Positions 1 through 64,000 are shown, counted from the stretch's first letter. The stretch is DNA of 64,000 nt from Candidatus Dojkabacteria bacterium (GCA_030950485.1 JAUZRK010000001.1:39998-103997); one strand, 5' to 3'. The notes: generated by a model not told the origin, from the sequence alone. A program made the numbers and translations.

Positions 1-1059
1 TCCTGTAATAAAGATCTGAAATTTACAGCTTATCAAATATTTCGCGAGGTTAATTCTATGTTCCTCATCAAGCTCAGACATAACATCGTCAATTAGAAAT
101 ATAGCATTAATATTCGTCTTACTCTCAAGATATTTATGTTGAGACATTTTAAAAATAAAACTACTTATTCTTTGTTGTCCTCTTGAACCTCTAAATCTTA
201 GTTCATTTTCCCCGAAATTAAATCTATAATCATCTTTATGAATACCATAGAGAGTTTTACCAACTATAATTTCTTTAGCTTTATTTTGCTCATATTTGTC
301 TAAATATGCTGACTTAAAGTTTGCTTCTGTAGTTTCTAAGTTAGGTAAATACTCTAGATTAAATTCAAGTGTACCTCGATAAATATCGCTACCTGTATCA
401 TTTATAAACTGGCTTATCTCATTAAAAAATAGAATACGATACTTGAATATTAGATAAGCTGTATCGACTAGTCCATTTGTCCAGAACTCAAGCTCGTTCT
501 GTGAGGACTTACCCTCACGAATATTCTTTATAAGAGCATTTCTATTTTTTAATAAAGTTTTGTATTTTTTTAGTGAACTTTTATATTCATTAAAACAAGT
601 AGAAAGAAAAATATCTAAATCTGTTCTTCTATCCGAAGGAGTTCCATTTGTTATATTGATTGAATACGGCGCGAAAAGAATTACCTTTATTAGCTCACTA
701 GATTTGCGTTGATTAGTATTTTTTGTATTTAACTTTAATTGAGATTTAAGAATATTAGAAACATTTGAAATTACTAATTCTAAATTATTCTCTTCAGTAG
801 CTATTGATATTTTGGCAAAACCGCTTTCTGAATCAATATTGATAAAATCTAGTTTTGAGTATAATTGCCTAAAAGTAGATCCATTAGACATTAAGAAAAT
901 TGATTCCAGAATATTTGTTTTCCCATATCCATTCTTCTCTACGATTAGATTTATGTGATCGCTGAATTGGAGATCAAGATTTTTAATATTTCTGTAATTT
1001 TTTAGCTTTAGATTTCGTATATACAAATTTGTTAGTATAATAGACAAACAATTATACAT
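1..1059 (-). CDS. recF: DNA replication/repair protein RecF (3' end of gene beyond window edge; start ATG at 1059 or TTG at 1026)
   Basis: Manual minus-strand translation gives an uninterrupted ORF: MYNCLSIILTNLYIRNLKLKNYRNI..EKNGYGKTNILESI (Walker A)..GSRGQQR (signature)..IFLIDDVMSELD (Walker B/D-loop). Missing from the supplied ORF track apparently because it runs off the window edge. Confidence 0.85.
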   Translation of the reverse strand, partial: MYNCLSIILTNLYIRNLKLKNYRNIKNLDLQFSDHINLIVEKNGYGKTNILESIFLMSNGSTFRQLYSKLDFINIDSESGFAKISIATEENNLELVISNVSNILKSQLKLNTKNTNQRKSSELIKVILFAPYSINITNGTPSDRRTDLDIFLSTCFNEYKSSLKKYKTLLKNRNALIKNIREGKSSQNELEFWTNGLVDTAYLIFKYRILFFNEISQFINDTGSDIYRGTLEFNLEYLPNLETTEANFKSAYLDKYEQNKAKEIIVGKTLYGIHKDDYRFNFGENELRFRGSRGQQRISSFIFKMSQHKYLESKTNINAIFLIDDVMSELDEEHRINLAKYLISCKFQIFITG

Positions 1060-1076
1060 TAATGTAAATATAGTTT

Positions 1077-2159
1077 ATGAAAATAGGTATTGATTTATCA
1101 ATGGTTGATGAGAATAAAGCAGGTATAGGTTACTATGCATCTGAGTCTACAAGACAATTAATATTATTAGATAAAGAATCAATTTTCTATCTCTATACAT
1201 ATAATAAAAATCTTGTAAGTTCTTTTTCTCAGTTAAATAATGTAAAAGTTGTTGAGATAAAATCTAATAGACCAAATTTAAAATGGATAATAAAAACTTA
1301 TATTGATTTTAAAAAGAAAAAAATTGATTACTTTATATCTCCATCAAATTTTATGTTTGGTGTATTGTTCTCTAGAACTATCCAAATAATACATGACCTT
1401 CTACCTATTAAAAGGTCGGAATTCTGGCCAAAGAAAGCAGGTATTTTCTATAAGTATCAATTGAAATTAGCTTCCAGAAGAGCATTTGGTTTCGCAGTTA
1501 ATAGCGAAGCTACAAAAAATGATTTAAATTACTACTTCCCAAAAACTAAAGATAAGGCTTTTTATATTGGAGGTGGCTTAAATGAATGGGCTAAAAAAAA
1601 TTATACTAATAAAGAATTAGAAGTATCTAAAGAAAAACTTCAATTACCTGAAAATTACTTTTTCTCTGCTGGAACGTTACAACCAAGAAAGAATTATGAA
1701 GGTATGATCAAAGCTTTTTATGAATTTAAAAAAGATCATTCTGAATTTAAATATTTAATTTCGGGAGGGAAAGGTTGGTATTATGACCATATTTTCAAAA
1801 TTGTAAAAGATTTAAAACTAGAAGACGATGTAATATTCCTAGGTTATACAGATGAAATAGATTTCCCAGCTCTGATAAAGTTTTCCAGTGGTTTCCTATG
1901 GGTAAGCCACGACGAAGGATTTGGTATGCCATGTTTAGAAGCATATGCTTTTGGAAAACCTATTCTAACTTCAGATATTCCTGTCTTAAGAGAAGTTATG
2001 GAAGAAAATGCTTTTTTTGTAGATCCTAACAATATATCTGCTATAGTTAAAGGTATGAGTAATATATTGAGTGTAGGTGATCAAAAGGTAAATAAAGAGT
2101 TTCTAAACAAACATTCTTGGAAAAATGTAGCAAAAAGATTAAAAAATATTTATATATAA
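1077..2159 (+). CDS. Glycosyltransferase, GT4/GT1-type (GT-B fold)
   Basis: C-terminal motif EGFGMPCLEAYAFGKPILTSDIPVLREV, typical of GT4 retaining glycosyltransferases. 360 aa. Confidence 0.7.
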   Translation: MKIGIDLSMVDENKAGIGYYASESTRQLILLDKESIFYLYTYNKNLVSSFSQLNNVKVVEIKSNRPNLKWIIKTYIDFKKKKIDYFISPSNFMFGVLFSRTIQIIHDLLPIKRSEFWPKKAGIFYKYQLKLASRRAFGFAVNSEATKNDLNYYFPKTKDKAFYIGGGLNEWAKKNYTNKELEVSKEKLQLPENYFFSAGTLQPRKNYEGMIKAFYEFKKDHSEFKYLISGGKGWYYDHIFKIVKDLKLEDDVIFLGYTDEIDFPALIKFSSGFLWVSHDEGFGMPCLEAYAFGKPILTSDIPVLREVMEENAFFVDPNNISAIVKGMSNILSVGDQKVNKEFLNKHSWKNVAKRLKNIYI

Positions 2160-2181
2160 TTAACAGACTAGATAAATCAGC

Positions 2182-2209
2182 TTGACAAATCGAGCATTCT
2201 GAGATAATT
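2182..2209 (+). promoter_or_regulatory. Sigma70-like promoter candidate (TTGACA ..16 nt.. ATAATT) upstream of the acidic-protein/tig genes
   Basis: ttgaca at 2182-2187, ataatt at 2204-2209, in the intergenic region after the glycosyltransferase stop. Confidence 0.35.
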
Positions 2210-2232
2210 TCTCATGTAGTTTAATCAAAAAT

Positions 2233-2526
2233 ATGAAAAAGACAAAGCTAAATACAGACTTAGACAATAAGGATATCGAAGAAAAGGATGAAGATGCATC
2301 TGATGACATCAACTTCACAATGGGAGATATAATCCATGATGGAGATGATGCTGATGAAGATAAGCAGATACTTTCTAGAGCAAAAGACATTTTAGGAGAT
2401 AATTCAGATCCAGATGAGTATGAAAACCAGACATTTGGAGCAGAAGATCTAGAACTAGATGATTCAGATGATTTTTTAGCTGGAGAAGATTTTGATCCAG
2501 ACTATTTTGATCCAGAAGATTACTAA
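2233..2526 (+). CDS. Small highly acidic hypothetical protein (D/E-rich, 97 aa)
   Basis: Complete ORF rich in D/E (DDSDDFLAGEDFDPDYFDPEDY). No recognisable domain. Confidence 0.4.
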   Translation: MKKTKLNTDLDNKDIEEKDEDASDDINFTMGDIIHDGDDADEDKQILSRAKDILGDNSDPDEYENQTFGAEDLELDDSDDFLAGEDFDPDYFDPEDY

Positions 2527-2552
2527 AATTTTAAATATAAAATCCCATTTAC

Positions 2553-3798: not shown

Positions 3799-4272
3799 TT
3801 ATACTGGTGTTGAAGCATTCCAAGCTATATTAAACATTTGGTTTAATAATTTAACCATATTCTTATCTGATATTATTATCCCTATTAGATTATCAGAATC
3901 TTTATTAATTATACTTGCCTTATCTCCATACAGCGAAAGTGTTGACTCAAAATTTACGGATTCATCCATGAATCTACTTTCTTTTAAAGTTTGCACATTT
4001 GAAATTTCTAATTCATTTTCTCTATCTTTATAATGAATCAAATTCTTTAAAGCTATACCTTTTTCTACTCTTTTAGATATATAACCTTGTATAGTCTCTG
4101 GTATTTTAGGGTGAAATTTAGCTGCTACTTCTCCATTCACCATCTGTTTTATTTCTTTATCACCAGATGAAATTCTGTCTACTAAAAGTGCAAGATAAGT
4201 ACCATTACCCTTATATACTTCAATCTCGTTATTTTTTAACTCAGACATTTCTTTTATACTTTGGAATTCCAT
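3799..4272 (-). CDS. TrmB C-terminal-domain-like protein (no HTH), paralog of the neighbouring TrmB-family genes
   Basis: C-terminal ...MFNIAWNA resembles MYLMIWENAE (4289..4837) and MFELAWNAAM (50070..50858). No N-terminal HTH. Confidence 0.4.
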   Translation of the reverse strand: MEFQSIKEMSELKNNEIEVYKGNGTYLALLVDRISSGDKEIKQMVNGEVAAKFHPKIPETIQGYISKRVEKGIALKNLIHYKDRENELEISNVQTLKESRFMDESVNFESTLSLYGDKASIINKDSDNLIGIIISDKNMVKLLNQMFNIAWNASTPV

Positions 4273-4288: not shown

Positions 4289-5070
4289 TTAATATATGAT
4301 TTCAGCATTTTCCCAAATCATTAAATACATAGATTTAACCATATTAGTAATAAACTTATCTTCTATTACTACTCTTAATAATCTATTATCTAACTTAGTA
4401 TGAAAACTTACGTTCGAATCAAAAAAGGAAATTAACGTACTAAATTTATAATTACCCTTTAAGGCTCTTACTTCTTTTAGATTATTGCTAGAGGTAGTAT
4501 CAAATTTATCAATGGCTTCTGAGTTATCTGTCATGTACTTTAAACTAATACCTAATTTCACTCTTCTACTTATATAGTCAGCTATATAACTGTCATACTC
4601 TTTACCTTTTGGGACAAATTCCTGTACAAACTTTCTATTTCCAATTTCATACAAAACTTTATCTTTTACTTTCAATCTACTATCCATAAAAAGTTTATAT
4701 CCTTGTTTACCTTCATAAACTTTTATATTACTATTCTTATAATGATTTCTAGCATATTCATCTATGTCAGAAATAAAAGCCTCTATGCCGCTCTTAGCGC
4801 TCTCTAATTTACTCTTTTCATTCTGATAGATATCCATATTAGTGTTTTTGATTCCAGAGCTCCAAATAGCTGATTTCGCTTCTCTCCTGTTACAGTCACT
4901 AAACCTATATCTTGAAGTTTTTTCAAGGCTCTATATGTTGAAGATTTATCCATACTCAATGAAAGATAAATATCAGTTCCGCTAGAAACTTCATTTCTAA
5001 GTAAAAATCTATAAATATCTATTTCGTTTTCCGTTAAACCTAATTGTTCTAAAGATTGTATTTGATTCAT
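4289..5070 (-). pseudogene. TrmB-family transcriptional regulator, split by a frameshift at an A5 run (HTH part 4804..5070, effector-domain part 4289..4837)
   Basis: The 88-aa winged-HTH ORF (TrmB-like: ..LGLTENEIDIYRFLL..GTDIYLSLSMDKSSTYRALKKLQDIGLV) overlaps a 182-aa TrmB C-domain ORF in the +1 frame. One added A in the run at 4845-4849 would fuse them (..ALESKNTNMDIYQ..). An intact 262-aa paralog lies at 50070..50858. Confidence 0.6.
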
Positions 5071-9625: not shown

Positions 9626-11452
9626 TTATCTAGTAACCTGATAGCTCTGCACTCTTTCCAATAACTCTTTTGCTTCATTATTATTAGTAAAATGAGCCCT
9701 TACTGGCGTTAGCAATTTATTTAAATACTTAATTACTGCAAGTTTTAGATCAAGTGGGAATAATACACCTTTCCTAAATGATTCCTCTAGTTCTTGATAA
9801 GTATTGTATGAGACATCTCCTCCAAATTTATCTTCTCTTTCTACTTTAAATACTCCATCCTCTAATAGTGATTCTTGTAATTTAAGATGGTGTGCTTCAA
9901 AAATAATTTGTTTACAGTATCCAAGAATTGGATTATCAGATATTTCTTCAGGCGGACAATAAGCTGCCATTATCTTTCTTTTTACATCTTCTTCTGAATC
10001 AGTCATAAAGATAGCAGTATCAGGCTTTGACTTAGACATTTTTTGAGAAATCTTAGCTGCCTCTGGGTCTTCATGGTACCTAACTTCTATCTCTGGTAAA
10101 TTATCCTCTTTATTTCTACCTACAAACTTAAAATCTACACCAAATTTAGTAACCGAATCATTCTCAATCAAACTAATAAGTTCTAATCTTCCTTTCCCAA
10201 TAGAAGAAACATTAAACTGAATTCCCTCTTCATTGCCTTGACCAAATTCAATATGATACTGAGATGAACCTAGTCTTAATTCTTGCCTCCCTTCTTTTAG
10301 CTTTATTAGCTTAATACTCTTTTGCATTGGCTTTTGCAACCCTTGAAGCATTCCATGACTAACAACAACAGGCTTCCAGTAGCCTACACTTGGACCAACT
10401 TCTCTTGCAAGCATGTTAACTTTTCTCTGATCCATTCCAAGCTCTGTAACTTGACACTTCATGACATGAAAAATATCAGTAGTCTGCATACAAGGATAGA
10501 TAATTTGAGCTCCCGAAAGATCATCATCTTCAGATCTACCCATTATCTCTGTTGTTCTTAGAATTCGTTTTAGTGTTGCAGATTTAGAAACCTTCATAAC
10601 TATTTCCCAATACTTAGGATCTTTAATTACATCACTAGTCCAAATAAATTCAGTATTATCTAAATCCATCCCTGATGCTTTCCAGATTTCAATAAAATAT
10701 TTACCGACATCTTTTATTTTTTCAAGATCTCCTCCCATCTTATTGTTTAAATATCCAAACCAATCTGCAACATACATCCTAAATGTAAAGCCAGCCTTAA
10801 TCATTTTATTCGTGTTTATAGCTCTAATGATTCCCTGAGCAATATGCATTTGTCCAGAAGGCTCAAATCCATCATAAGTATATAGATCTTCGCCAGAGGT
10901 CAAAATTCCAGCTAATTGATCTTCACCTATAACTTCTCCTCCAGTTTCTTCAGATCCTACAGACATAATTAAGTCTATTCTCTCTTGTAATTTAGGTGTA
11001 ATCTCAATCTCTTGGTACTGATTAAAAGCTCCAATATAGAAACTTTCTTTAGTTGCATCTAATATACTTTTACCTATTGCATCATCAATACTCATTTCTA
11101 ATTCACTTCCTTCAATCACTCTAATCCTAGTATGATCTTCACTTGTACCTATTTCATCTTCAGCTAATATCATTCCTTCAGAATCAACTCCCCTTAATGG
11201 TCTCTTTTCTAATTTAATTTCTTTCCCTTCTTTAAATAAGAATCCAGGAACTACCTCGCCAACACCTAAAAATGGTACTAGATCACCTGGTTTAAAATTA
11301 GAAGCACCTGTAACAATCTGAAATTCTTTATCTCCATCAGTTATTTGAACAACTAGCAATCTATCTGCATTTTCATGCTTCTCTACTGATAAAACTTTTG
11401 CGATTTTTATTTTTTCTAAGAGTTCTGTAATTCTTTCTTTTCTAAATTTCAT
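9626..11452 (-). CDS. tyrS: Tyrosine--tRNA ligase, archaeal/eukaryotic type, with an N-terminal Trbp111/EMAP-like tRNA-binding domain
   Basis: Class I motifs FEPSGQMHIAQG (HIGH-like) and KMSKS. Core resembles eukaryotic/archaeal TyrRS (MYVADWFGYLNNK.., ..SGAQIIYPCMQTTDIFHVMKCQVTELGMDQRKVNMLARE). The first roughly 110 aa (KIKIAKVLSVEKHENADRLLVVQITDGDKEFQIVTGASNF) match the Trbp111/CsaA/MetRS-C tRNA-binding fold. Confidence 0.8.
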   Translation of the reverse strand: MKFRKERITELLEKIKIAKVLSVEKHENADRLLVVQITDGDKEFQIVTGASNFKPGDLVPFLGVGEVVPGFLFKEGKEIKLEKRPLRGVDSEGMILAEDEIGTSEDHTRIRVIEGSELEMSIDDAIGKSILDATKESFYIGAFNQYQEIEITPKLQERIDLIMSVGSEETGGEVIGEDQLAGILTSGEDLYTYDGFEPSGQMHIAQGIIRAINTNKMIKAGFTFRMYVADWFGYLNNKMGGDLEKIKDVGKYFIEIWKASGMDLDNTEFIWTSDVIKDPKYWEIVMKVSKSATLKRILRTTEIMGRSEDDDLSGAQIIYPCMQTTDIFHVMKCQVTELGMDQRKVNMLAREVGPSVGYWKPVVVSHGMLQGLQKPMQKSIKLIKLKEGRQELRLGSSQYHIEFGQGNEEGIQFNVSSIGKGRLELISLIENDSVTKFGVDFKFVGRNKEDNLPEIEVRYHEDPEAAKISQKMSKSKPDTAIFMTDSEEDVKRKIMAAYCPPEEISDNPILGYCKQIIFEAHHLKLQESLLEDGVFKVEREDKFGGDVSYNTYQELEESFRKGVLFPLDLKLAVIKYLNKLLTPVRAHFTNNNEAKELLERVQSYQVTR

Positions 11453-32238: not shown

Positions 32239-32314
32239 AGGTTTCGATTATTCAATCATCCAAAATCTTATCTTTGTAAGCTTCTTGAAAGCTTTCTGAC
32301 ACTCTTTCAATTGT

Positions 32315-34141: not shown

Positions 34142-34254
34142 TTCATAAAATTTATTCGTTCAGCTACACCCAATAAAAATTGAGCTGCCACCAAGTTTTA
34201 GAAATTAGTTTAGAAAAGTTCATAGAAGAATGATACTATACTAGTCTGCTAGTA

Positions 34255-34515: not shown

Positions 34516-34604
34516 TATCTAAATTTAATAGATTAATATATTAAATATTGTGTTGAAGTGATTTAATTGATAATCTTATCTAGTATATAGAGTTTTTACA
34601 GAAA

Positions 34605-36329: not shown

Positions 36330-36406
36330 ATACTATTTAAATTGTAAATTAATTGTAATCATTCTCCTAAATTGATAGTCTGTATTGAGACGTTCACTAA
36401 CGACAT

Positions 36407-40375: not shown

Positions 40376-40432
40376 TTATTATCAGCCATAAATCAGTTTT
40401 GAATATATTTAGACATTATTTAAGTAATAAAA

Positions 40433-46034: not shown

Positions 46035-46697
46035 TTAGTAAATGAAATCAGTCCAATCAATGTGATTAATAGAACTATACTTGTAGTCTGTTGGATAATC
46101 GTATCCCCATTTTTCAGCGTGTTTCAAATGATTATTTATTGTATATAAGTATTTAACATTAAATTCTTTCTCATTACGAATTACTCTATAGTAAAAAGAC
46201 TTTTGCCATTTGAATTTTGGATCATTTGATTTTGGTATATCTTTTCGATGTCTTGATATGTAATCGTGTATTTGTTCTAGGAGATTTGGTAGAGAGGCAT
46301 TTGTATGATATTGCCGTGAACGTAGGGGAAGAAACGTTTCTTCCCCTACGTTGCCTCTGGCGTTACTCCCTGCCATAGGCCCATTCGAATCAAACATCAA
46401 TTTATTAAACCCCATAATCGTATTACAGCTATGCGAAAACTGTTTCTTAATAGAAAACATAATTTTTGAAATATCAGACTTTTCTGATGGCTTAATAATT
46501 AGATGTAGATGATCATACAATATATTAAATGCATACAACTCGAATCCATGAATCTTTTTTGATAATTTCAATTGCATAATTAATAAGTCAGCGAACACGT
46601 TGTTTTTAAAATATGGATAATTATTTTGTGTTTTTGTTGTTATAAAATATATGGCATGATCTACATAAAACCTTTCTGTTGTTTTGTATTTGTTCAT
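46035..46697 (-). mobile_element. REP-associated tyrosine transposase (RAYT; IS200/IS605 TnpA-like HUH Y1 transposase) with an internal REP insertion
   Basis: HUH motif ..YDHLHLIIKP.. and RAYT C-terminal motif ..KWQKSFYYRVIRNEKEF... A perfect 30-bp palindrome CGTAGGGGAAGAAACGTTTCTTCCCCTACG (46321..46350) lies in-frame inside the gene (..GSNARGNVGEETFLPLRSRQYH..). Confidence 0.7.
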
Positions 46698-46839: not shown

Positions 46840-48468
46840 CTATGAGTTCAAAATAATTAATTCACTCTTTGCCCTTGTTGCTGCTACGAATAATAGTTGT
46901 CTATCAACCTTTGTAAATTCTTCTTTAGATATATCACATTCTAATTCAAAAAACTGGTTCTTATCTAAAAAGCTATTTTTATTTGCAATAAATACAGTAT
47001 CAAACTCCATTCCTTGAGAATCTTCTGAAGTTAAGAAATGATAATTATCTGGCCAGTTTTGATTTTTAGAAAAGTCTAATTCTTCTATATATTTTGAAAG
47101 AACTCCTACCTGTCCTTTATAACCTGTATCTACAAGCTTGTTTAATTCAGCTGTAATATGTTCATGTTTTAATTTATCATTTACAAAATTCATTTCAATA
47201 ACCGCTTTTCCAATTTCTGTTACCATATCAACGTTTACATCATAGTCCTCTTTTTCTAACCAACTTAATATAGACTTTGTATTCCTATATGCTTTAGTTA
47301 GAGTCACCTCATTATCAACAGGATATCCTTCTTCTAATTCATTCCAACTTCTTATTGTAAATGGTTTTGTTCTTTGGTTAATATCTCCAACATAGGTTAC
47401 AGAGTCGAATTTGACATCCGTAATAATCTTAATTATATCAAGCTGCATTGGCAACCAGTTCTGAACCTCGTCTACAACGATATGACTATATACTCTCTTA
47501 TGAACTTCTGTATTCTTGCATAGAAGTGCAGTATCAATATCATCTAACCAATAATCTTCTTGCTGATTATTTATAAATGATTTAAATATTTTTAAAAATG
47601 GGGATTTAGATTGAAATGAGTTATATATATTAAAAAGCCTATCTAAACCAACATTTTCTTTACCTATGTTTTTTAATGCTTCAAGTTTATATTTTCTAAT
47701 TTCATTGAAAATGATTTCAGGGTTTAGATTTGTACCTACTTCCATTTCATAATTAAGAATAGATAATGCCTGATCTTTTGTTAAAGCTTTATATCTTTTA
47801 TTAAAGTTTTGATTTACTACTGCCAAAGACCATTCCAAGAAGGTTAAGACTTTTGCAGTTTTTATTCCTAAATCAAGTAGTAATGTACTAAAGTATTTAA
47901 TTGCTGAATTATCACTTACAAATACAATTATATCTTCAGCTTTAAAGTACTCGGTAAACTCTGGTGATTGAATTAAATAAGCCAATCTATGTAGAGCAAG
48001 AGTTGTTTTTCCAGAACCTGCTGGACCGGATATTAAAAAGCCTCCTTTTGGATCTAATCTAATTATTGTATCTTGAGCTGCTTCAAGTTGAGCTATTATC
48101 TCTGGAAGTGCGAAATCTTTTTTCTCTGATAAATGTTTATGAAAAATAAGTTCTCTTTCATTATCTTCCCTATCTAAAGTAAGATATGTGATATCACTAT
48201 TTGTAATGATATAACTATATTTTTCATTTATAAAAACTTCTTTACGCTGACCGTTTGGAATTTCGTACGAAGCTTTACCGTTTTTTTTTAATCGTAATCT
48301 TGCTATTGGAGATATCCAAGAGACAATATTTTCATCTCTATCAAAATGTTTACCAATAAACAGATTATAGTTCTGGCCATGTCTTTCTGAGTCAAAATCT
48401 ATTTTTGCAAAGTAAGTAGAATCTACTAGCTTTTCTAAACTATCTGCATCCTCGATAAACAGAGTCAT
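46840..48468 (-). CDS. UvrD/HelD-like superfamily-1 DNA helicase
   Basis: Walker A GPAGSGKTTLALHRLAYL, DExx ..IVVDEVQN.., ..TKAYRNT.., ..SQGMEFD.., motif VI ..LFVAATRAK... The reading frame stays open upstream of the annotated ATG, so a longer N-terminus with a non-ATG start is possible. Confidence 0.65.
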   Translation of the reverse strand: MTLFIEDADSLEKLVDSTYFAKIDFDSERHGQNYNLFIGKHFDRDENIVSWISPIARLRLKKNGKASYEIPNGQRKEVFINEKYSYIITNSDITYLTLDREDNERELIFHKHLSEKKDFALPEIIAQLEAAQDTIIRLDPKGGFLISGPAGSGKTTLALHRLAYLIQSPEFTEYFKAEDIIVFVSDNSAIKYFSTLLLDLGIKTAKVLTFLEWSLAVVNQNFNKRYKALTKDQALSILNYEMEVGTNLNPEIIFNEIRKYKLEALKNIGKENVGLDRLFNIYNSFQSKSPFLKIFKSFINNQQEDYWLDDIDTALLCKNTEVHKRVYSHIVVDEVQNWLPMQLDIIKIITDVKFDSVTYVGDINQRTKPFTIRSWNELEEGYPVDNEVTLTKAYRNTKSILSWLEKEDYDVNVDMVTEIGKAVIEMNFVNDKLKHEHITAELNKLVDTGYKGQVGVLSKYIEELDFSKNQNWPDNYHFLTSEDSQGMEFDTVFIANKNSFLDKNQFFELECDISKEEFTKVDRQLLFVAATRAKSELIILNS

Positions 48469-49040
48469 TTTGGCTAATGTTGCTGCCTTTGCTTCATTTG
48501 CAGGATCTGCTGGATTCTCGATTATGTGCGCCAGGTCAGGTGCTGCATTCTTGATCTCATCTATTCTTTCTTTATAAACTGAAATTCTTTCTTTTATACT
48601 TGAGATTTTATTTTCTAAAGTTTTTTTCTCTTTATCGAGAATGTTCTTTTTTTCTTTTTATCCATTTAAAGAGAGTAAAAACTAAAGTGGGTGTGCAAAG
48701 ATCAAGATGAAATCTCATCTTAATTTAATAAGTATAAAGTGCAATTACTTTCTTGCGTGGGATCAGGTTTCCAAAGTCGTGAATTTATTGTACCATTTTT
48801 AATAAATCCGCTCAAATCAATAACCATTAAAGCAATGTAATGACATATTAAATCAATGATAATAAATGAAAGAATTTATAGAGTTAAAGATACCTTTATC
48901 ATTAAGTCATTTCAAACCAGTTTACAAATCAGCGAGCGATGGATTATTCATACATGCTATTCTATTGACAGCCACAAGTGACAATTCTGTACATATTATG
49001 TATAATCCATTCGTAATTTTAACCTTTTATAATAAGCTAT

Positions 49041-49693: not shown

Positions 49694-50077
49694 ATGTTGT
49701 ATACTAAATATATGAAAAATAGTGACAATCAATCTGAAATTGAAAAAATTCTTGAACCTGATGAAGCAAGCCCAACTGAATTGGATGCTAGAATTAATGA
49801 TCTAGAAGAGAAGATAGAGAAATTAGGATTATTAAGCAGGTACTCTACTCTACAAAGACAATGGGACAAAAGTCTTGTTAAACTTTTAACAATGATTGTA
49901 ACTACTTATATATTTGTAGCAGTCGTTATGTATTTCTCTGATGTTTCAGATTTTCTTTTTGCAGCCTTAATTCCAGCTTTAACATTTGTAGCTTCAACTG
50001 CAGCATTACCTTTCGTTAAAAGATTCTGGGTAAAAAGATATGTAAAAGCTGAGAAAGAGTCAGCGAAAATTACATAG
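49694..50077 (+). CDS. Small membrane protein (127 aa, 2 TM)
   Basis: N-terminal coiled segment then two hydrophobic helices. Confidence 0.3.
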   Translation: MLYTKYMKNSDNQSEIEKILEPDEASPTELDARINDLEEKIEKLGLLSRYSTLQRQWDKSLVKLLTMIVTTYIFVAVVMYFSDVSDFLFAALIPALTFVASTAALPFVKRFWVKRYVKAEKESAKIT

Positions 50078-50858
50078 CGGCATTCCATGCAAGTTCAAAC
50101 ATTTGCCTTTGGAACTTTGCTATTTTAGAATTATAAATCTCAAGACCAAATACTTCGTCATCATGCCAAGTATAGTAACTAACTATATCATTATAAATAT
50201 CAACTTGATGAGATATTTTTAAAACGTTGCTGGTAATAGTTTTAGTTTTAAATGCTTTTTCGTTCCCCGAAGCTAATACTGGTTCATCAGTATAATCTTC
50301 ATTAACTAAATCTCTAAACTTTAGTTTTTTTAAAATAAACTCCATTTTCCATTTTCTATAGAAATCTAAACCAATAAGTTCAGAAAGATCTCTAAAAGTA
50401 TATCCAACTATTTCTTCTTTAGCTTGTAATATATTCCAAACCATTTGCTTTATTCTCTCTGTCCCTTTATACATAATTACTTTAGTTCCCGGTTGTGAAA
50501 GAGAAATATCAGACGCTATAAAGTTACTTAATTCAGGTAGTAACTTTTTTAAAGTTTCAGTTTTTGATTCATGCTCTTTTACTAACAATTCCAGTTTATG
50601 TAATCCTACAGGCATTAGTATTTTCTTATTGTCTTTCTCTACTTGCTCTATTAATCCAAACGCTATTAGTTCTTCTACAAATCGATAGGTAGAAGTTCTG
50701 CTTATTCCAGTAGTTCTTGAAAGCTGAAGTACAGTCTGTCCTCCTTTTTGCATTAACGCTAGGTAAAGTTTAGATTTCTCTACATCTAAACCAAGAGTTG
50801 ATAGAAATTTTAGTATTATTGTTAGGTCTTTCATAGAGAATGTCCGGTTATAGGACAA
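50070..50858 (-). CDS. TrmB-family transcriptional regulator (intact, 262 aa)
   Basis: N-terminal winged HTH (..LYLALMQKGGQTVLQLSRTTGISRTSTYRFVEELIAFGLI..) plus a TrmB C-domain ending ..MFELAWNAAM. Confidence 0.6.
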   Translation of the reverse strand: MSYNRTFSMKDLTIILKFLSTLGLDVEKSKLYLALMQKGGQTVLQLSRTTGISRTSTYRFVEELIAFGLIEQVEKDNKKILMPVGLHKLELLVKEHESKTETLKKLLPELSNFIASDISLSQPGTKVIMYKGTERIKQMVWNILQAKEEIVGYTFRDLSELIGLDFYRKWKMEFILKKLKFRDLVNEDYTDEPVLASGNEKAFKTKTITSNVLKISHQVDIYNDIVSYYTWHDDEVFGLEIYNSKIAKFQRQMFELAWNAAM

Positions 50859-54370: not shown

Positions 54371-54844
54371 TTAAAATCTTCTCATAGCTAAAGCCTTCAT
54401 TGAAATATCTCTTATTTCACTATAACTGATTTCATAGCCTTCTGGATTGTAATAGACTTTGCGTCTTTCAATTTCATTTAAAAGTAGTTCATTACTAATC
54501 TCCATCTTACTTATTACTTTTCGTAGAATTTTACCCAATCTTTCATCACTAACATTCTCGAATAGGTCAGATTCAAAAATCACTTCAACATCTTTTCGAA
54601 CAAAGATTTTATATCTACGTTCTAAAAATGCTTTTTGATCCAGACTAAGTTTAGGAGCGTTTTAAACATAACTCATAAAAGTATCTACTACTAGAAATAT
54701 AATGTTTTTGCTATCTGCTATTTCTATTTTCGTTTTACTAGCCCAACCTTCTATTAATTCAGGTTCAACAATAAATTCTCCATTTTGCTTCCTCTCAACT
54801 TTATAAGTCGCAAATTTAATTAGTTTTTTATCATTTTTATTCAT
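54371..54844 (-). pseudogene. Small gene interrupted by an in-frame TAA (54662-54664); two ORFs of 60 and 70 aa in the same frame
   Basis: ..VVDTFMSYV*NAPKLSLDQKAFLERRYKIFVRKDVEVIFESDLF.. reads continuously apart from the single stop. Function unknown. Confidence 0.3.
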
Positions 54845-55939
54845 AGCTCGCAGGGAAAATAACTGGTAATTTATCTGGATCTATTAATTTTGTAGTTCTG
54901 CTTACATAGCTTTCTGAACTTGGCTCTACAACCAATAGACAATCTACTCTTTCTGCTAACCAAATCCCCTCCATTGCATACTCAGTACCTTGTAATGCAA
55001 CTGTTCTTTTTGTACGTTCATATGCCAACTCTGATTCCATACCAGCTTCAATAAGTTGATTAGCTTTTCGTTCTACTCGATCGTTCACTTCAGGACCGGT
55101 AACCAGATATTCAGTCTCTGTTTCAGCAAGTCTCTTTTCTAATTGCTCATTAAAATTTTGAGAGTAAATCTCACCATCAATAGGTAATTCTCTAGATCTT
55201 GGTGAGATTTTTACTGTGCTTCTATTGATCTTATTAGTAAGTCTATTAATAACTTTTTCAGTAACTTCAGCAACTGCAGACTCGCCTCCAAACATTAAAT
55301 CATCAGTCTGAATAATCCCCTCCGTATCTGCAACCCAGATATCTAACTTCTAATTAACACCAACTTCATCAAGCCTATCGCACAAAGCATTAATTTGTTC
55401 AGCATTATAATCAAGAGGAGATTTAAGCCTCGCTGGCTTATACCTATATCGAATTTCTCCATTATCTTGCATTATTTCAACCTCTAACTTATGCATACAA
55501 GTAATAAGACCTAACCTAATTTGCTCACCGCTTTCAATAGCTCTTAATATGTTTCTCTTAGAACTTCAACATTGAAAGCAGGAATTGTTGATGATGAAAC
55601 CAAAGTTTCTAAAACTCTATTTGCGTAGAATTCAGCATTCTCAAAAATTTCTATTTTCTTTTCAAATGCTTTTTGATAACTACTTAGTTTATTCCTTTCT
55701 GACTTTGTATTTCTATCCATAGCATTATTTATCTCACCACTTTCATTTAATGGAGCTGAGTACCTAATTGTTCCAGATTCATCAATGAAAGTTTCTTCAA
55801 CATACTCGCTACTTCGAATCATATAATCTAAATCCTGCTTATATATTACAGCCTGGTATAAAGCTTGATCTGAAACTTCTACATCCATACCTAATACTTC
55901 TCTTACTTGATCATTATAATTTTCCATTTTTAAACTCAT
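54837..55939 (-). pseudogene. Hypothetical gene of about 370 aa broken by one frameshift (near 55540) and one in-frame TAG (55349-55351)
   Basis: ORFs 55544..55939 and 54837..55295 plus an intervening 68-codon segment read as one protein (..NVEVLRETY* / SSKRNILRAIESGEQIRLGLITCMHKLEVEIMQDNGEIRYRYKPARLKSPLDYNAEQINALCDRLDEVGVN*KLDIWVADTEGIIQTDDLMFGG..). Confidence 0.35.
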
Positions 55940-56341: not shown

Positions 56342-56453
56342 AGCGTAATATTACACTAATACATGTGATTTTGTCAATGACAACTTGAGTTTCTTACTCA
56401 AGAGCCATACCTGCAAAAAGTCAGGCGACATAATACAATGAAATGCACACTGC

Positions 56454-56492
56454 CTTTCTCCCCCTTGAGGGGGATTTAAGGGGGTGACCCTG
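56454..56492 (+). repeat. GC-rich palindromic element (CTTTCTCCCCCTTGAGGGGGATTTAAGGGGGTGACCCTG)
   Basis: Core perfect palindrome TCCCCCTTGAGGGGGA at 56459-56474. Near-identical copy at 59749..59796; degenerate copy inside elp3. Confidence 0.75.
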
Positions 56493-56751
56493 TGAGTGAT
56501 GATATGAAGATCTTCCCATAAAGGAATACACTGCATCACATTAAAAACTTATTTTCTTTTGTTAAGTTTTGCAGTAATAACGACGGGCAATGATGTATCA
56601 GCTTCGGCAGGACTAACTCCGCCAAAGAGAGGGTAATTCAATTTGAAACCAAGTTAGTTACTACAAGTTACAACAAGAGTAAATCAGATTTAACTCTTCC
56701 AGTATAAAGAATTTAAAAAATTAGCAATCTAATACACCTAACATACTCGTT

Positions 56752-57569: not shown

Positions 57570-59671
57570 ATGTACAATTTTAGTAAATATACTCATATAA
57601 TGTCTATTCTTTCATCAAAATCAAAAGTAAAAGAATATATTCTTCAAAAAGTAGTAATTAAGATTGCTGTTCCTAAAGACAATGAGAAACAGTCTGAGTC
57701 TGCAGTTCAACTTTTCCAAGCTATTCATGGAACTTTACGTAATAAAATGATTTTGGAAGATCATTTTAGTTTAGAACTTATTGGAAATGGTGACGGAGTA
57801 TTTTTTATTGTTGTATGCGAAGAGCGATACTATAAATTCGTTGAAAGCCAAATATACGCTGCTTATCCCGATTCTGAAATTACTAGGATTAATGATTATG
57901 TAAATTTAGATATTTTGAAAAGTTTTTCAATAGAATCAAGTAAACTTACTCTAAAGAAGCCTAGTTATTTGCCAATAAAAACATATGATCGATTTAATAC
58001 TGATCCTATTGCTCCTTTAATATCAGTTATTTCAAAACTACCCGCTACTCAAAGCGCTTGGATACAGATTTTAATTCGTCCTGTAAGTAATTCAATTAGT
58101 GAATTAGGTAAAAGATATATTAAAAGGATTTCAAAAACTGTAAATGAACAAGGGAAAGAAGTTAGTTTAAGCTTAGATAATGATCAAAGAGAAGAAATTA
58201 GACAAATAGAAAATAGAAGTAATTCTGATGGATTTCAATTCTTAATTAGAATTCTTACAATTGCTGGTACTACTTCAGATGCTAATTATGCACTTGAAGA
58301 TATTGAAGCAAGTTTCAATCAATTCGATAGTTCGAAATTAAATGGGTTTAAAGAAAAAATAGATAAGAAAGGCTTTCTAGGTGAACTTATAGGAAACGAA
58401 GATTTAACTATCGAAAGTCGTTATTTAAATAGATTTTTAGATGACAATGAAAAAGGAATCTTAAATACTCAAGAAACTGCATCTGTATTTCATTTACCAA
58501 ATAAATCAGTAAAAATTACGCAACTAAACTGGTCTAGTAGTACAAAGCTTCAAGTTCCAAATGACCTACCAGTAATAAATACTCAGATCGACTTAAACCA
58601 TAATAATTTTGATATTAAATATTCTTCCGAATTTTTACATACTGGAGTTAGATACTTTGGTCTTACTGATTACAGAAATAACCACTTCCCTTTTGGAATA
58701 AAAAGAGAAGATCGAAGAAGACATATGTATCTTCTTGGAAAAACAGGAACTGGAAAGTCATTGTTCATTAAAAACATGGTTTTTGATGATTTATATGATG
58801 GTGAAGGATTTGCAGTAATAGATCCTCATGGCGATTTAGTAGAAGAGATTTTAGAGCTAATTCCTGAGCATAGAAAAAATGATGTTGTCTATCTTGACCC
58901 TTCAGATATCGATAATCCTATTGGTTTAAATATGCTTGATATTAAAGAAGGAGAATCAAAAGAGCTTTTAGCAGATGGTATTGTTTCTGTTTTTATTAAA
59001 TTATTTGGTCATTCTTGGGGACCGAGATTACAACATATTCTTCATAATACTGTACTAACACTACTCCACTGCCAAAATGTTTCATTATTGGCGGTTCAAC
59101 GGATATTACTAGATGGGAATTATAGAAAATTCTTATTAAATCATTACTATCTTACTTAGTTCAGACATTGTTATATCTTCCTCTTGATCAACAACGTGAT
59201 TTCTATCTTTATGTCGATGAATTCCAGAATTTTGCTACTACTACTTTTATTAAAATACTCTCTGAAGCGTGTAAATATGCCCTTAATTTGCTTGTAACTC
59301 ATCAATATATAGATCAGATAGAACCTAGTATTCAAGACGCAATTCTTGGTAATGTAGGGACTTTAGTCAACTATGTTGTTGGTCCTAAGGATGCCAGTAG
59401 ATTAGAGAGAGAATATACTCCGCATCTCTCTTCTGAAGATCTAGTAAATCAAGAGAAATTCAACTTTGTTATTAAAGAAACAATTGATGGCGCTCAGTCC
59501 TATCCTTTTACCGGGGAGCTAATGTTAATGGATCTTCATAAGTCTAATTTAAAGGAAGAGGTTAAACATCTTTCTAGAGCTAACTACTCTACTAAAAGAG
59601 ATATTGTAGAGGAAAAACTTCATAAATGGGCTACTAATAAATATAACGATAAGGGGAATCTTATTTCCTAA
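57570..59671 (+). pseudogene. VirD4/TraG/TraD-like (type IV coupling protein family) AAA ATPase, split by a frameshift near 59140-59165
   Basis: Walker A ..MYLLGKTGTGKSLF.., ..FAVIDPHGDL... Second ORF (TTG start at 59168) carries Walker B ..FYLYVDEFQNFA.. and a TraD/TraG C-terminal-like ..LNLLVTHQYIDQI..AILGNVGTLVNYVVGPKDASRL... The frames differ by one nucleotide. Confidence 0.55.
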
Positions 59672-59748
59672 TTTTGGCGACATACTAGATATATCCGTTA
59701 GCTGCGTGGTTAATGAGTCATAGCAACAATGAAGGCTAAAAAAGACTG

Positions 59749-59796
59749 TCTTTCTCCCCCTAGAGGGGGATTTAAGGGGGTGATCCTGTTCGGGGG
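59749..59796 (+). repeat. GC-rich palindromic element (CTTTCTCCCCCTAGAGGGGGATTTAAGGGGGTGATCCTGTTCGGGGGG)
   Basis: Core TCCCCCTAGAGGGGGA at 59755-59770. About 90% identical to 56454..56492. Confidence 0.75.
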
Positions 59797-59893: not shown

Positions 59894-60535
59894 TTACGCT
59901 GCTATTGCAATAGGGTCATCACTGAATCTTAATTTTTCTTGTTCAGCCTTAATTCTATCATTTAATTGAGGAACTACAGCAGAGTTTATCTTACCCCTTA
60001 AGGCTTGTAATTCATTAAGTCCATTTGCCTCGGTAACAAAAATTGTATCTCTTCTAATTTCTAGAGTATTTATTGCTGTCTTAACAGATACAGTTTGTTC
60101 TTCTAAAGCTTCTAATTCTGCAATTAAATCATTAATCTTAATTGGATCATATATACTCTGTGCCACTTTTAATATTTCACTTGCTTTTTCATTTGCCGAA
60201 TTCTGTGCCTCTGAAATTACTGAATCAGTAATATCTCCTCTTACTCCGTCTATGTATCCGATTCCACTTTCAATTCTTTCAATTTCACTTTCATCGCCTG
60301 CTTTTACTGCTGCCAAAGTTACTTCATCAACATTAAATCTTGTTCTAGCAGTCTTTTCAATAGTTTCACCAGTTTTGCTATCAATATAAGAGCTAACTAC
60401 TTTAGTCTCTTCTGCCTCAGGAATGGGTGCAACACTTTTTTCTGAAGCAATTGCTCCAAATAAGTTAAAAATTTGTATCTTTTCTTCTGAAGTATACTTA
60501 TTGAATAGCGCAGGAGTATTAATTGTATCTCTCAA
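59894..60535 (-). CDS. Hypothetical protein (213 aa)
   Basis: Complete ORF; no domain recognised. Confidence 0.3.
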   Translation of the reverse strand: MRDTINTPALFNKYTSEEKIQIFNLFGAIASEKSVAPIPEAEETKVVSSYIDSKTGETIEKTARTRFNVDEVTLAAVKAGDESEIERIESGIGYIDGVRGDITDSVISEAQNSANEKASEILKVAQSIYDPIKINDLIAELEALEEQTVSVKTAINTLEIRRDTIFVTEANGLNELQALRGKINSAVVPQLNDRIKAEQEKLRFSDDPIAIAA

Positions 60536-60610
60536 CTCATTAAAATCCGGATTTTCTAAAAGCTTATCAAAAGGTACAAAAGCTGCTTCTAACGAGGCAT
60601 CTGTAGTACT

Positions 60611-61897
60611 CTAATTTCTAAAGACTGCAGTTATCCACTTGTGACTTCTCTTTATATGTCCAATTTTAACTACTTTAAGATCAGCTTTTATAGCTCGATC
60701 TCTCAGTTCATCTTCGCTAAACAAATGATAAAATCTTTCAACATCTCCATATTCTTTATTGTCATTTTTCATTTCTTCACCCTCTCCTTCTCTAACAATC
60801 AGATAAAAAATTCCATCCTCAACCAGAGCTTTTGCAATGTTTGCAAAAACCTTATCAAGCTTGTCGCCTTCAATGTGGTGAAGCGCTCCTCTACTCCAAA
60901 TTCCTTTATATATATTCTCACCTAAATCTCTTTCAACAACATCACAATACTCTACATCAACTCCTGGATTCTCATATTGAGCAATTTCTACCATTCTCTT
61001 AGAGATATCTAATGCTTTCATTGAATATTTTTCTGAAAGATATTTTGTATCAAACCCTGGACCGCAACCAATATCTAGAACTCTAGCTGGTGGATTAACC
61101 ATTGTAATAAACTCATCTAATTGTTCTTGAGCTACTAATTTACCAGCATATGTTTTGTGATAACTAGATGTATGTGCCTCATATGTTTCAGTTGTTCTTT
61201 TCATCCTAGGAGACAGTATAAATGCAGTTTCGTCACCTGTTATGTTCTCAAGCTTACAATGTTGAATCTTTTGCTCATGGTCAGTTAAATGAGCTAGTAC
61301 TTCTTCAGGTGTAGTTGCTTTATAAAGAACTCCAAGTTCCGTCTCGTCTATATATAAAGCCTTTTGAAAAGCTTCTATCAAGTCTTCCCAGAAATCTCCA
61401 AATAATATTACAGGCTTGTGACATCCATAATACAGCTTAGACAAAGCCCAAACTAATCCAAATTCTGATACGGTACCTGTTCCACCCTTACAAACTATAT
61501 ATGCATCTCCTCTTTCGATTAGTCCAAAAGTTCGATTTACATAATTAGAAGAGGCTGATGATTTATCAGTAACATTTGCTAAATTCTTCCCTTCAAAGAA
61601 AGAAGCAAGTTTAGGTTCCCAGTAAACTGCCTGTGTTTCTCCACCAACGCTCTCAGCCCCATCAGTTGCTGCTTTCATTAGCCCTGGACCTCCACCATCA
61701 ACTACTGTGTAACCTCTCTCAGCTAATGCTTTAGAAAGCTCCCACACTGATTTATAAATCGGGTCTCCTTCAGGTATTGCGGAGTCTCCAAAAAAGGTGA
61801 TGTTTTGAATTATTCTATCTCTATCTTTATGTTTAATTGTACTATCATCAGCAGAATCAGCACTATCTTTTCTAGGTAATTTTATATTAGTTGGCAC
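60611..61897 (-). CDS. LOG-family (TIGR00730 Rossmann nucleotide-binding) domain fused to a class I SAM-dependent methyltransferase
   Basis: N-terminal ..VVDGGGPGLMKAATDGA.. and ..CKGGTGTVSEFGLVW.. (PGGxGTxxE LOG motif). C-terminal ..RVLDIGCGPGFDTKYL.. motif I. 428 aa. Confidence 0.65.
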   Translation of the reverse strand: MPTNIKLPRKDSADSADDSTIKHKDRDRIIQNITFFGDSAIPEGDPIYKSVWELSKALAERGYTVVDGGGPGLMKAATDGAESVGGETQAVYWEPKLASFFEGKNLANVTDKSSASSNYVNRTFGLIERGDAYIVCKGGTGTVSEFGLVWALSKLYYGCHKPVILFGDFWEDLIEAFQKALYIDETELGVLYKATTPEEVLAHLTDHEQKIQHCKLENITGDETAFILSPRMKRTTETYEAHTSSYHKTYAGKLVAQEQLDEFITMVNPPARVLDIGCGPGFDTKYLSEKYSMKALDISKRMVEIAQYENPGVDVEYCDVVERDLGENIYKGIWSRGALHHIEGDKLDKVFANIAKALVEDGIFYLIVREGEGEEMKNDNKEYGDVERFYHLFSEDELRDRAIKADLKVVKIGHIKRSHKWITAVFRN

Positions 61898-62669: not shown

Positions 62670-62770
62670 ATGAAAATTGTTTATAGGTAATCTTTCACGT
62701 AAAATCTTTCAACAATCTTACATTTATTCAATAATATACTTGGCAGGGAATAGAATCAAGAGCATTTGAT

Positions 62771-63331
62771 TTAAACAATTGGCGGATACTGTCTATTTTC
62801 TTTTAAATACTTATCAAACTCATCTTCTTTCCATATATTCGCTGGGTTCTCAACATGAGAAAGGAAAAGAATACCGTTTAAATGATCAAGCTCATGCTGT
62901 ATTAAATGGGAGAAAAAACCATCAGCATCTAAAGATCTTTTATTTCCTTTTTGGTCATAGTACTCTATTCTAACCTTTTTCGGTCTATACACTGGACCAT
63001 AAAGTCTATTTTCTCCAGTATTTATAGATAAACAGCCCTCCCATATTAATGACTCCTTTTTATCTAAAATTTTAATATTTGGGTTTATCATGACTTCCCA
63101 CTGATCTCTATATTCATCCTCTAGGTCCGTTCTTTTAACAACAAAAACTCTCTTTAGTACTCCGATCTGTACTGCTGATAATCCAGCGGCATCTTCGAAA
63201 TTAGCCTTACATGTATCGAGTAGATCTTTAATTAGGCTCCTAGTTTCTTTAGAATCTATATCTGCTCTTTCAACTTTTACTGATTCTTTAAGCAGTCTTT
63301 TGTCTCCTATTTGTATTATTTCTTTAATCAT
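62771..63331 (-). CDS. def: Peptide deformylase
   Basis: Motifs GLSAVQIGV (motif 1), EGCLS (motif 2), QHELDHLNG (motif 3). Confidence 0.9.
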   Translation of the reverse strand: MIKEIIQIGDKRLLKESVKVERADIDSKETRSLIKDLLDTCKANFEDAAGLSAVQIGVLKRVFVVKRTDLEDEYRDQWEVMINPNIKILDKKESLIWEGCLSINTGENRLYGPVYRPKKVRIEYYDQKGNKRSLDADGFFSHLIQHELDHLNGILFLSHVENPANIWKEDEFDKYLKENRQYPPIV

Positions 63332-63625
63332 TTTTTTAAATAATATAGCTAATTATAACCTATAAACTTAGTAAATCATGATAAAAAGTACTTTTTACAG
63401 AGAAAAACATCCTATGTTAAATGTATGTGGGTGATATTCTAAGTAGAGCCCTCATATTTAGAGTCTATATACTTGCTTGAGCTACTATAAACGCCAGATA
63501 CTCAGTACATATAGTGCTTTTAGCAGAGCTGGACATAATGCCCACCCTATAAGCTTTTAGTTACCTGCAGCTTATATAAATTTCAACAGTTACATTAATT
63601 TCAAAACCCATCCAGCCCTCTAGTA

Positions 63626-63654
63626 TTGACAATTACCTGATTTATTCATAAACT
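63626..63654 (+). promoter_or_regulatory. Sigma70-like promoter candidate for hup (TTGACA-17 nt-TAAACT)
   Basis: ttgaca at 63626-63631 and taaact at 63649-63654, about 55 nt upstream of the hup ATG. Confidence 0.4.
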
Positions 63655-63709
63655 TGAGTATAAGTTGAAGTTTTCAATTTAGATTTATTTTATTTATTAC
63701 TAATTTAAG

Positions 63710-63985
63710 ATGAACAAATCAGATTTAGTAGAATACATTTCTAACAAAACAGGTTTAACAAAAAAAGATGCTAATGCAGCATTAGATGCATTCATGGAAG
63801 CTGTAGTTTCTACAGTATCTTCAGGAAACAGCGTTACAACTACAGGTTTCGGAACATTCACTTTTGTTGACAAAAAAGCAACAACTAAGAGAAATCCAAA
63901 AACTGGAGCGCCAGTAAAGGTTCCTGCTAAGAGAGTTCCAAAGTTCAGACCAGGAAAGGCTTTCAAAGAGTCTGTAAACAAATAA
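63710..63985 (+). CDS. hup: HU-family DNA-binding protein
   Basis: MNKSDLVEYISNKTGLTKKDANAALDAF..GFGTFTFVDKKATTKRNPKTGAPVKVPAKRVPKFRPGKAFK matches HU/IHF. 91 aa. Confidence 0.85.
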   Translation: MNKSDLVEYISNKTGLTKKDANAALDAFMEAVVSTVSSGNSVTTTGFGTFTFVDKKATTKRNPKTGAPVKVPAKRVPKFRPGKAFKESVNK

Positions 63986-64000
63986 TCTTAATCGATTAAT

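Follow-up and report, generated by a model that had tools for sequence, protein, structure and literature searches.

Why are so many genes broken in one short stretch of a Candidatus Dojkabacteria genome? The stretch in question, called here the window, is 64 kb (64,000 nucleotides, 31% G+C) of a metagenome-assembled genome (MAG) from this member of the candidate phyla radiation (CPR; GCA_030950485.1, JAUZRK010000001.1:39998-103997). An original prediction, made by inspecting the sequence by itself, proposed that accessory genes in the window are being lost, with some of the damage perhaps attributable to sequencing error. The answer preferred here, to which a probability of roughly 80% is assigned, is that ordinary mutation is breaking down dispensable genes in this genome because selection on them has relaxed. 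Consensus errors could, of course, account for a minority of the lesions.

The window contains a cluster of ribosomal protein genes with rpoA, the genes for three aminoacyl-tRNA synthetases and GatB, and many lineage-specific genes; searches of the 64 kb for tRNAs and for Rfam families gave no match. By exact sequence, its proteins are those of Candidatus Dojkabacteria in two NCBI assemblies, and their accession numbers (MDQ69847xx) increase steadily from one end to the other, which assigns the window to the more contiguous of the two. The ribosomal proteins, RpoA, TyrRS, TrpRS, HisRS, and GatB are all intact, as had been said in advance of the core genes (ribosomal proteins and aminoacyl-tRNA synthetases). 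The damage lies elsewhere.

Lesions in the window

Three-frame translation and inspection of the DNA verify 12 lesions across eight flagged loci: six nonsense codons, five one-base frameshifts, and one large deletion. Each stop and frame change listed in the original prediction is present in the sequence where it was placed, and most of the coordinates stand as well. The exceptions are the gene for a transporter of the major facilitator superfamily (MFS), which starts at 30286 rather than 30157, and the locus beginning at 39770, whose ATG (40387-40389) lies slightly past the end assigned to it. A correction is also needed for the lesion in a VirD4-like ATPase gene, which is not a simple frameshift but rather an internal deletion of ~83 codons.

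Continuity of a gene across its lesions is shown at six of the eight loci by homologs or family profiles that span the breaks. These are a TrmB paralog, the MFS gene, trpB, the neighboring genes at 54371-54844 and 54837-55939, and the VirD4-like gene. The claim of eight disrupted genes thus holds for these six; the loci at 26792-27274 and 39770-40389 are not demonstrably single genes.

The six nonsense codons include three TAA (27044-27046, 30149-30151, and 54662-54664), two TGA (29625-29627 and 33611-33613), and one TAG (55350-55352). A common sequence context around them was looked for, and none was found. Stops within genes need not, of course, be read as stops. Gracilibacteria and Absconditabacteria, related lineages within the CPR, read TGA as glycine (code 25), and two of the six in-frame stops here are TGA. 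However, the in-frame stops are of all three types, no housekeeping gene contains one, and the affected genes are also frameshifted. Moreover, TAA, TAG, and TGA all terminate intact genes in the window (38, 13, and 4, respectively), which excludes reassignment of the kind seen in table 4 or 25. Stop-codon reassignment, thought unlikely from the outset, is therefore scarcely credible as an explanation, as is programmed read-through.

The frameshifts differ in kind. One more base in a run restores the frame in three cases (A5 at 4845-4849, A5 at 40349-40353, and A3 at 55552-55554), and lengthening a T4 run at 30012-30015 by one base probably does the same in the MFS gene, where we infer the site. 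The frameshift in trpB is of the opposite kind, an extra T in a T3 run (32916-32918).

Some of these genes have decayed beyond a disabling lesion. The MFS gene carries three lesions, trpB carries two together with radical amino acid changes, the gene at 54837-55939 carries two and has lost two invariant residues, and the VirD4-like gene has two deletions. Such additional signs were not seen in the TrmB paralog, at 39770-40389, at 54371-54844, or in a HelD-like helicase gene described below, each of which has a single lesion.

Assembly error or mutation?

Those reading a MAG must ask whether its lesions were made by assembly and polishing, leaving a pseudogene content that is in truth normal and low. 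Under-calling of homopolymers is the commonest type of long-read error, and two of the lesions here are inferred at short runs (T4 and A3). A second assembly of the same strain (GCA_030949735.1, the sister assembly) has contigs of 9-23 kb, five of which (L001-L005) together span nearly all of the window.

If one noisy contig end is set aside, 2 single nucleotide polymorphisms (SNPs) and 28 insertions or deletions (indels) separate the two assemblies over ~57 kb, with 0-1 SNP per contig. The indels private to the sister assembly, mostly in runs, break the genes for L13, S11, HisRS, TrpA, Def, HU, and others. In genes that are intact in the window, every difference breaks the sister version; the sister is therefore the noisy assembly. 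Its noisy contig end (33595-36178 in the window) has an error of ~6%. The divergent stretch, which sets in at the 5' part of trpB (33534-36178), shows 92 gap openings over its 2.6 kb.

No flagged lesion coincides with any of the 30 differences between the assemblies. Rather, every lesion is common to both, and five fragment proteins are identical.

A demonstrably error-laden sister makes an artefact in the window easier to imagine. The types of lesion, however, speak otherwise. Half of them are substitutions and one removes ~250 nt; the assemblies do not differ at any of them, and housekeeping genes have none. With only 2 SNP differences in 57 kb, the six substitutions that create stops are very unlikely to be noise, as is the ~250-nt deletion. 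Sequencing error does not account for lesions in five genes; these include the nonsense substitutions, the ~83-codon deletion, two or three lesions in the same gene, and radical missense changes at conserved sites (in trpB and at 54837-55939). Thus, it is very improbable that all or most of the lesions arose in assembly or polishing.

Lesions can be real, of course, without being fixed. A MAG is the consensus of a population, and the consensus might have caught defective alleles that exist beside intact ones, with function kept in the population. The sister assembly breaks and diverges exactly at the 5' part of trpB, which may be a sign of strain heterogeneity. Yet both assemblies have the identical allele at every lesion, and the divergent stretch, with its many gap openings, looks like raw long-read noise, not like a second strain. 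Further, genes with several lesions imply that inactivation is long-standing. A polymorphism of this kind is improbable.

The trp locus

The trpB pseudogene (32527-33841, minus strand) is interrupted by TGA at 33611-33613, which occupies the residue preceding GRPTPL, and by the extra T in the run at 32916-32918, where the frame shifts between GVVEG and YKSYFLQD. Both lesions are also present in the sister contig. When repaired, the protein can be aligned over its full length to solved TrpB structures (510 bits), and its score of 570 bits on TIGR00263 (cut-off 392) places it in the TrpB family. The motifs HTGAHKIN (with the catalytic lysine), GGGSN, and SGRGDKD are found in the alignment; the open reading frame (ORF) itself is broken.

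The damage extends to the residues that remain. The carboxylate-binding loop is radically changed, from ETGAGQHG to ETRAGQHG (a change of the G111R type), and the arginine of NVFRM is replaced to give NVFWM (the R141W type). Other conserved sites have changed as well: KREDL to KNEGL, VRDFQ to VRGFQ, and GIIPALES to GIIGTLES.

Upstream of trpB lies a gene for a TrpR-family regulator (34255-34515, minus strand; PF01371), which scores 60 bits on TIGR01321, just under the cut-off. Downstream, trpA (30916-31617, minus strand) is an intact ORF of 233 amino acids, with support from Pfam Trp_syntA (202 bits), TIGR00262 (186 bits), and alignments to PDB structures. It was considered as a decaying gene and rejected, as its deviations also occur in solved TrpA proteins. 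A search for exact sequence matches to TrpA, HisRS, and a 99-aa TrpR-like protein gave none; trpA and hisS are broken by private indels in the sister assembly.

A DUF559 endonuclease-like gene (31831-32238, minus strand; Pfam DUF559, 115 bits) sits between trpB and trpA. Together with its flanking repeats it occupies 31596-32483; the direct repeats of 179 bp on either side (31596-31774 and 32308-32483) are 90% identical. Each copy has a core rich in G+C along with the initial ~20 bases of trpA, degenerate in the upstream copy. With the start of trpA in both copies, it follows that the intergenic region was duplicated when the DUF559 gene was inserted.

This layout, trpR-trpB-trpA, resembles that of Chlamydia. 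In Chlamydia trachomatis, a trpR-trpB-trpA operon for indole salvage has been inactivated in ocular strains (PMC8262981). Here, as there, a stand-alone TrpR-family gene precedes trpB and trpA, and no further trp genes lie nearby, an arrangement that fits indole salvage rather than de novo synthesis. Again as there, the operon has been knocked out by point lesions in one lineage. Unlike in ocular Chlamydia, where trpA is the broken gene, here it is trpB, broken by both a nonsense codon and a frameshift. In the window, moreover, a DUF559 gene with 179-bp repeats parts trpB from trpA, and the regulator falls just below the TrpR cut-off. Judged by the neighborhood within the window, the three genes fit a predicted operon for salvage of indole to tryptophan.

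The transporter and the coupling ATPase

The MFS pseudogene (29106-30286, minus strand) is broken by two stops, TAA at 30149-30151 and TGA at 29625-29627, with a frameshift between them near the T4 run at 30012-30015. That the count is three follows from the position of its start at 30286, inside a 241-aa ORF (30149-30874). The repaired protein covers positions 30-337 of the 347 in Pfam MFS_1 (59.6 bits), across all of the lesions, and the lesions are shared with sister contig L003. Within 30149-30874, an unrelated coding region of 195 codons continues with no stop into the MFS gene, through its first 46 codons. Either the transporter naturally has this N-terminal extension, or an upstream gene has lost its stop.

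The gene at 57570-59671 (plus strand) encodes an ATPase resembling the VirD4/TraD type IV coupling proteins, with a DUF8128 and a DUF87/TrwB domain by Pfam, and is interrupted by an out-of-frame deletion near 59139-59141. A homolog search returned 6054 homologs; the family is kept by thousands of Patescibacteria. Against the closest of these (P0008, P0009, and P0011), the N-terminal fragment aligns up to ...YRKF(I/L)L, and the C-terminal fragment resumes 83 residues later. This, in turn, means that an internal deletion of ~0.25 kb has occurred out of frame, between Walker A and the Walker B region at DEFQNF. All close homologs have the ~83 residues that are missing here, and 8 more codons are missing in addition. 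No contiguous P-loop ATPase domain remains: Walker A (GKTGTGKS) and DEFQNF are in different frames, and the Pfam matches are a weak one to TrwB_AAD_bind (18 bits) and one to DUF87. Both fragments are identical in the sister assembly.

Near this gene, a G+C-rich hairpin element of ~45 nt (core CCCCTTGAGGGG) attracts attention. It occurs three times, at 56449-56493, at 59745-59789, and at about 44345-44395. The first two copies flank a block made of a Zn-peptidase gene and the VirD4 pseudogene. The third lies in frame within an Elp3-like ORF, with a gene for a RAYT/IS200-like Y1 transposase nearby (46035-46697).

A two-gene cassette next to hisS

Two further broken genes lie side by side between a TrpR-like gene and hisS. 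The larger (54837-55939, minus strand) belongs to an uncharacterized conserved family. Its frame is shifted at the A3 run 55552-55554 and interrupted by TAG at 55350-55352. The family is marked by the motifs CMPK...ADTE...LQDxEYAMEG, and an A4 run at the frameshift restores EVLRENILRAIESG. Six relatives came out of an exhaustive HMMER search, and their alignment with the gene runs through both lesions. Two residues that are invariant in these six have been lost, with CMPK becoming CMHK and LQD becoming LQG. A 152-aa fragment is identical in both assemblies. Pfam, PADLOC, and PHROGs gave no match for the family.

The family proteins (P0127-P0132) allow a look at structure. An AlphaFold model of P0128 (m39a7879454d0) is confident at residues 100-357, and its best Foldseek matches in the PDB are TyrRS catalytic domains and PvcA (E about 1e-5, TM 0.35-0.4). 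The family also travels with a small downstream gene.

In the window, the small gene (54371-54844, minus strand) is interrupted by TAA at 54662-54664, a position held by tyrosine in an intact homolog. It aligns across the stop to an intact 170-aa ORF of a metagenome contig (L086; E=3e-9), which has the same two-gene arrangement as 54371-55939. The lesion is shared with sister contig L004.

Natural history offers a clue to the origin of the cassette. The TrpR-like gene and hisS are directly adjacent in one relative (L078) and have an unrelated gene between them in another (L006). As the cassette is absent from this interval in relatives, 54371-55939 is a lineage-specific insertion. Synteny anchored on HisRS in 80 GTDB genomes reached 64% identity at most and revealed no orthologs of the loci that adjoin hisS.

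Loci that depend on a single run

The loci that remain are more subtle. In the TrmB-family regulator paralog (4289-5070, minus strand), a frameshift at the A5 run 4845-4849 splits the protein into fragments of 88 aa, with the helix-turn-helix (HTH), and 182 aa. The Pfam TrmB HTH is matched in the N-terminal fragment, and A6 would restore ...ALESKNTNMDIYQNEK... across the break. So repaired, the protein aligns across the shift to an intact paralog (50070-50858) and to a single ORF in a relative (L054). The sister assembly has the same A5. Directly downstream, at 3799-4272, is a 157-aa ORF with a TrmB-type C-terminal domain only, without an HTH; it matches residues 132-261 of the intact paralog (E=1e-7) and may be a truncated tandem copy.

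A gene for a HelD-like helicase, of the type that recycles RNA polymerase (46840-48665, minus strand), is probably a ninth disrupted locus, one that the original prediction did not include. Ahead of its 542-aa ORF (46840-48468) lie 63 startless codons in the same frame, an outlier in the window, where the next largest such stretch is 32. An ATG at 48663-48665 is out of frame, and A8 in place of the A7 run at 48647-48653 restores MDKKKKKNILD.... These 63 codons score strongly as coding (+26). On the HelD_BACSU profile, the match of the ORF by itself sets in at position 88, and the extension takes up positions 21-87 for a gain of only ~1 bit.

At 39770-40389 (minus strand) is a 166-aa ORFan with a GTG start, preceded by 29 in-frame startless codons. 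Its ATG is out of frame, and A6 in place of the A5 run at 40349-40353 would join them. The upstream stretch has a weak coding-like score, and the same sequence is found in sister contig L002. Here, a control is instructive (h213). The codon-usage score separates reading frames perfectly for windows of 50 codons, but it is not decisive for short stop-free stretches. After the stop of a LOG-methyltransferase gene, at the gene 59894-60535, 25 coding-like codons without a start continue in the same frame; they are a false positive, as comparison with seven relatives shows the TAG to be native. With this false positive in hand, the evidence for 39770-40389 must be downgraded, and its frameshift is no more than plausible. 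The gene that served as control (59894-60535, within 59894-60613) has a putative TTG start.

The second ORFan region (26792-27274, minus strand) consists of two open stretches in the same frame, of 76 and 83 codons, parted by TAA at 27044-27046. It may be a disrupted gene or merely two small ORFs in one frame. By its score the region could be coding, though this is not decisive, and a 53-aa fragment is identical in both assemblies. A protein homolog search that used concatenated ORFan queries missed the identical self fragments P0003 and P0004, and is therefore uninformative rather than negative.

Three of these loci invite a simpler hypothesis, that the TrmB, 39770, and HelD-like genes are intact and the assembler under-called each run by one base. 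Each needs exactly one more A, which is what under-calling typically does, and the three genes have no other lesion; the sister assembly, with its 28 indels in 57 kb, mostly in runs, is a reminder of how easily this happens. The intact genes of the window, however, hold 342 runs of at least 5 bases, 119 of at least 6, and 41 of at least 7, all in frame. The required error of ~2% per run of at least 6 bases predicts ~2.4 errors among those 119, so that this rate is disfavored, though only marginally (p about 0.09). Two of the runs are only A5, short for such errors. Further, the sister, although noisy and erring in both directions, has equal run lengths at all three sites. Under-calling at these runs is thus rather unlikely, with some weight left to it. 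This agrees with the earlier suggestion that homopolymer errors may explain a subset of the shifts; the TrmB A5, 39770 A5, and HelD-like A7 runs remain ambiguous, and the lesions there are presumably real.

Real run-length changes need not be fatal. They might act as switches, through slipped-strand mispairing and phase variation, or they might be rescued by transcriptional slippage or by -1 ribosomal frameshifting. In Blochmannia and Buchnera, AT-rich endosymbionts of insects, some frameshifts within homopolymer tracts are documented as rescued (PMC3017870, PMC5009743). In the window, two of the three runs are within the first 6-13 codons, as in contingency loci. Moreover, G_AAA_AAG at 39770-40389 and AAA_AAA_A in the HelD-like gene resemble slippery sites, where a -1 shift gives the restored protein. 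The resemblance to the Blochmannia and Buchnera poly(A)/poly(T) frameshifts is real in that a one-base indel in an A run is the sole lesion of genes that are otherwise intact, in an AT-rich genome that is reduced. The runs here have 5-7 bases, however, while those documented have 9-12 (tracts of ~9 or more; PMC3017870). Run lengths do not vary between the two assemblies at any of the three sites, as those of a switch might. The TrmB site (TCA AAA ACA) is not a slippery heptamer, none is found at the shifts in trpB, the MFS gene, or 54837-55939, and homologs of the TrmB paralog and of 54837-55939 are in one frame. A switch or rescue is, on this evidence, distinctly improbable.

Disruption load against relatives

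Does the window carry more disruption than expected? Of its ~64 genes, disruption is demonstrable or probable in seven, and in up to nine with the ORFans included (11-14%). Disrupted genes take up 12.5% of the window and intact coding sequence 74%. In a survey of CPR genomes, the median coding density was 89%, which was read as few pseudogenes (PMC9166423).

A count that makes no use of homology allows a direct comparison. Here, open stretches of at least 60 codons in the same frame are counted if split by one stop, with at least 20 codons after the stop that contain no start. Four such pairs are found in the window, one being the proven false positive, versus 0.61 per 64 kb in relatives (13 in 1.37 Mb from 80 related genomes), a baseline that is inflated by relatives using code 25. 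The window thus has them about seven times more frequently (Poisson p about 0.004), and the high load that had been claimed for it is borne out.

Several considerations weigh against decay as the explanation, and they deserve to be gathered in one place. The load is measured over 64 kb only. The sharing of lesions is the agreement of two consensuses whose read sets may not be independent, so that systematic errors may be shared; the sister resembles an unpolished long-read assembly. The lesions do cluster (12 in 8 genes; simulation p=0.02), and none falls in the housekeeping share, 24% of coding DNA (p=0.04), but both statistics are modestly significant and partly circular. Three loci hang on one poly-A run that is one base short (TrmB A5, 39770 A5, and HelD-like A7). 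Last, a single gene is unproven at both ORFan loci: at 26792-27274 no homolog was found among relatives and viral contigs and no Pfam match, and at 39770-40389 no homolog was found among relatives and viral contigs.

Decay by ordinary mutation under relaxed selection nevertheless accounts for the most, including the nonsense substitutions, the ~83-codon deletion, the genes with multiple lesions, the loss of conserved residues, and the lesions common to both assemblies, as the original prediction had supposed for accessory genes. The path is easily imagined. An AT-rich genome that is dense in homopolymers would favor substitutions that create stop codons, themselves AT-rich, and the same AT-richness would favor one-base slips in runs of A or T. 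A gene once dead would then gather further lesions. The functions affected are indole-to-tryptophan salvage (trpR-trpB-trpA), an MFS transporter, a type IV coupling-protein-like ATPase, a TrmB-type regulator, and the lineage-specific cassette by hisS, with possibly the HelD-like helicase and two ORFans as well.

Comparison with known systems

Pseudogenes accumulate in the reductive evolution of host-restricted bacteria, as in Mycobacterium leprae, Sodalis glossinidius, and Rickettsia. The window resembles these in its nonsense codons, one-base indels, and internal deletions, in having several lesions per gene and housekeeping genes spared, and in its AT-richness. The load, about 11-14% of genes in 64 kb, is far lower than that in M. 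leprae. Another difference is the group itself, as the CPR are usually described as compact, with few pseudogenes (PMC9166423). Gene decay is thus a known process, well documented in reduced genomes, that is not commonly reported in this lineage.

Would the load extend across the genome, with more than 10% of genes disrupted? This would catch the lineage early in the active reduction of its genome, such as might follow a recent move to another host or niche, a proposal that is tentative, and doubtful on the 64 kb at hand. Were it true, the loss of genes in a CPR bacterium could be watched in progress, including which accessory functions go first: a salvage operon of the trpRBA type, a transporter, a coupling ATPase kept by thousands of Patescibacteria, and regulators. 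It would also run counter to the picture of CPR genomes as small since ancient times and poor in pseudogenes.

A more practical lesson concerns the data. Like long-read metagenomes with indel errors generally, the sister assembly has 28 indels in 57 kb and broken essential genes. The lesions in the window depart from such errors: both assemblies have them, substitutions and a large deletion are among them, and essential genes are spared. Pseudogene counts taken from GCA_030949735.1 would be grossly inflated. With two public assemblies of the same strain ~thirty-fold apart in apparent frameshifts, pseudogene counts in long-read MAGs need a cross-check.

Other features of the window

Two of the intact synthetases have additions of their own. 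TrpRS (27402-28910) has an N-terminal domain like YbaK and the editing domain of ProRS (residues 10-148). In TyrRS (9626-11452), a tRNA-binding domain lies at the N terminus, and the TyrRS profile matches the protein in two stretches rather than one.

At 34605-38734, two adjoining genes encode large cysteine-rich proteins (574 and 775 aa), secreted or anchored, with many CGDG...CDDGN repeats (DUF4215-like). The G+C content of this gene pair is 35-39%, above that of its surroundings.

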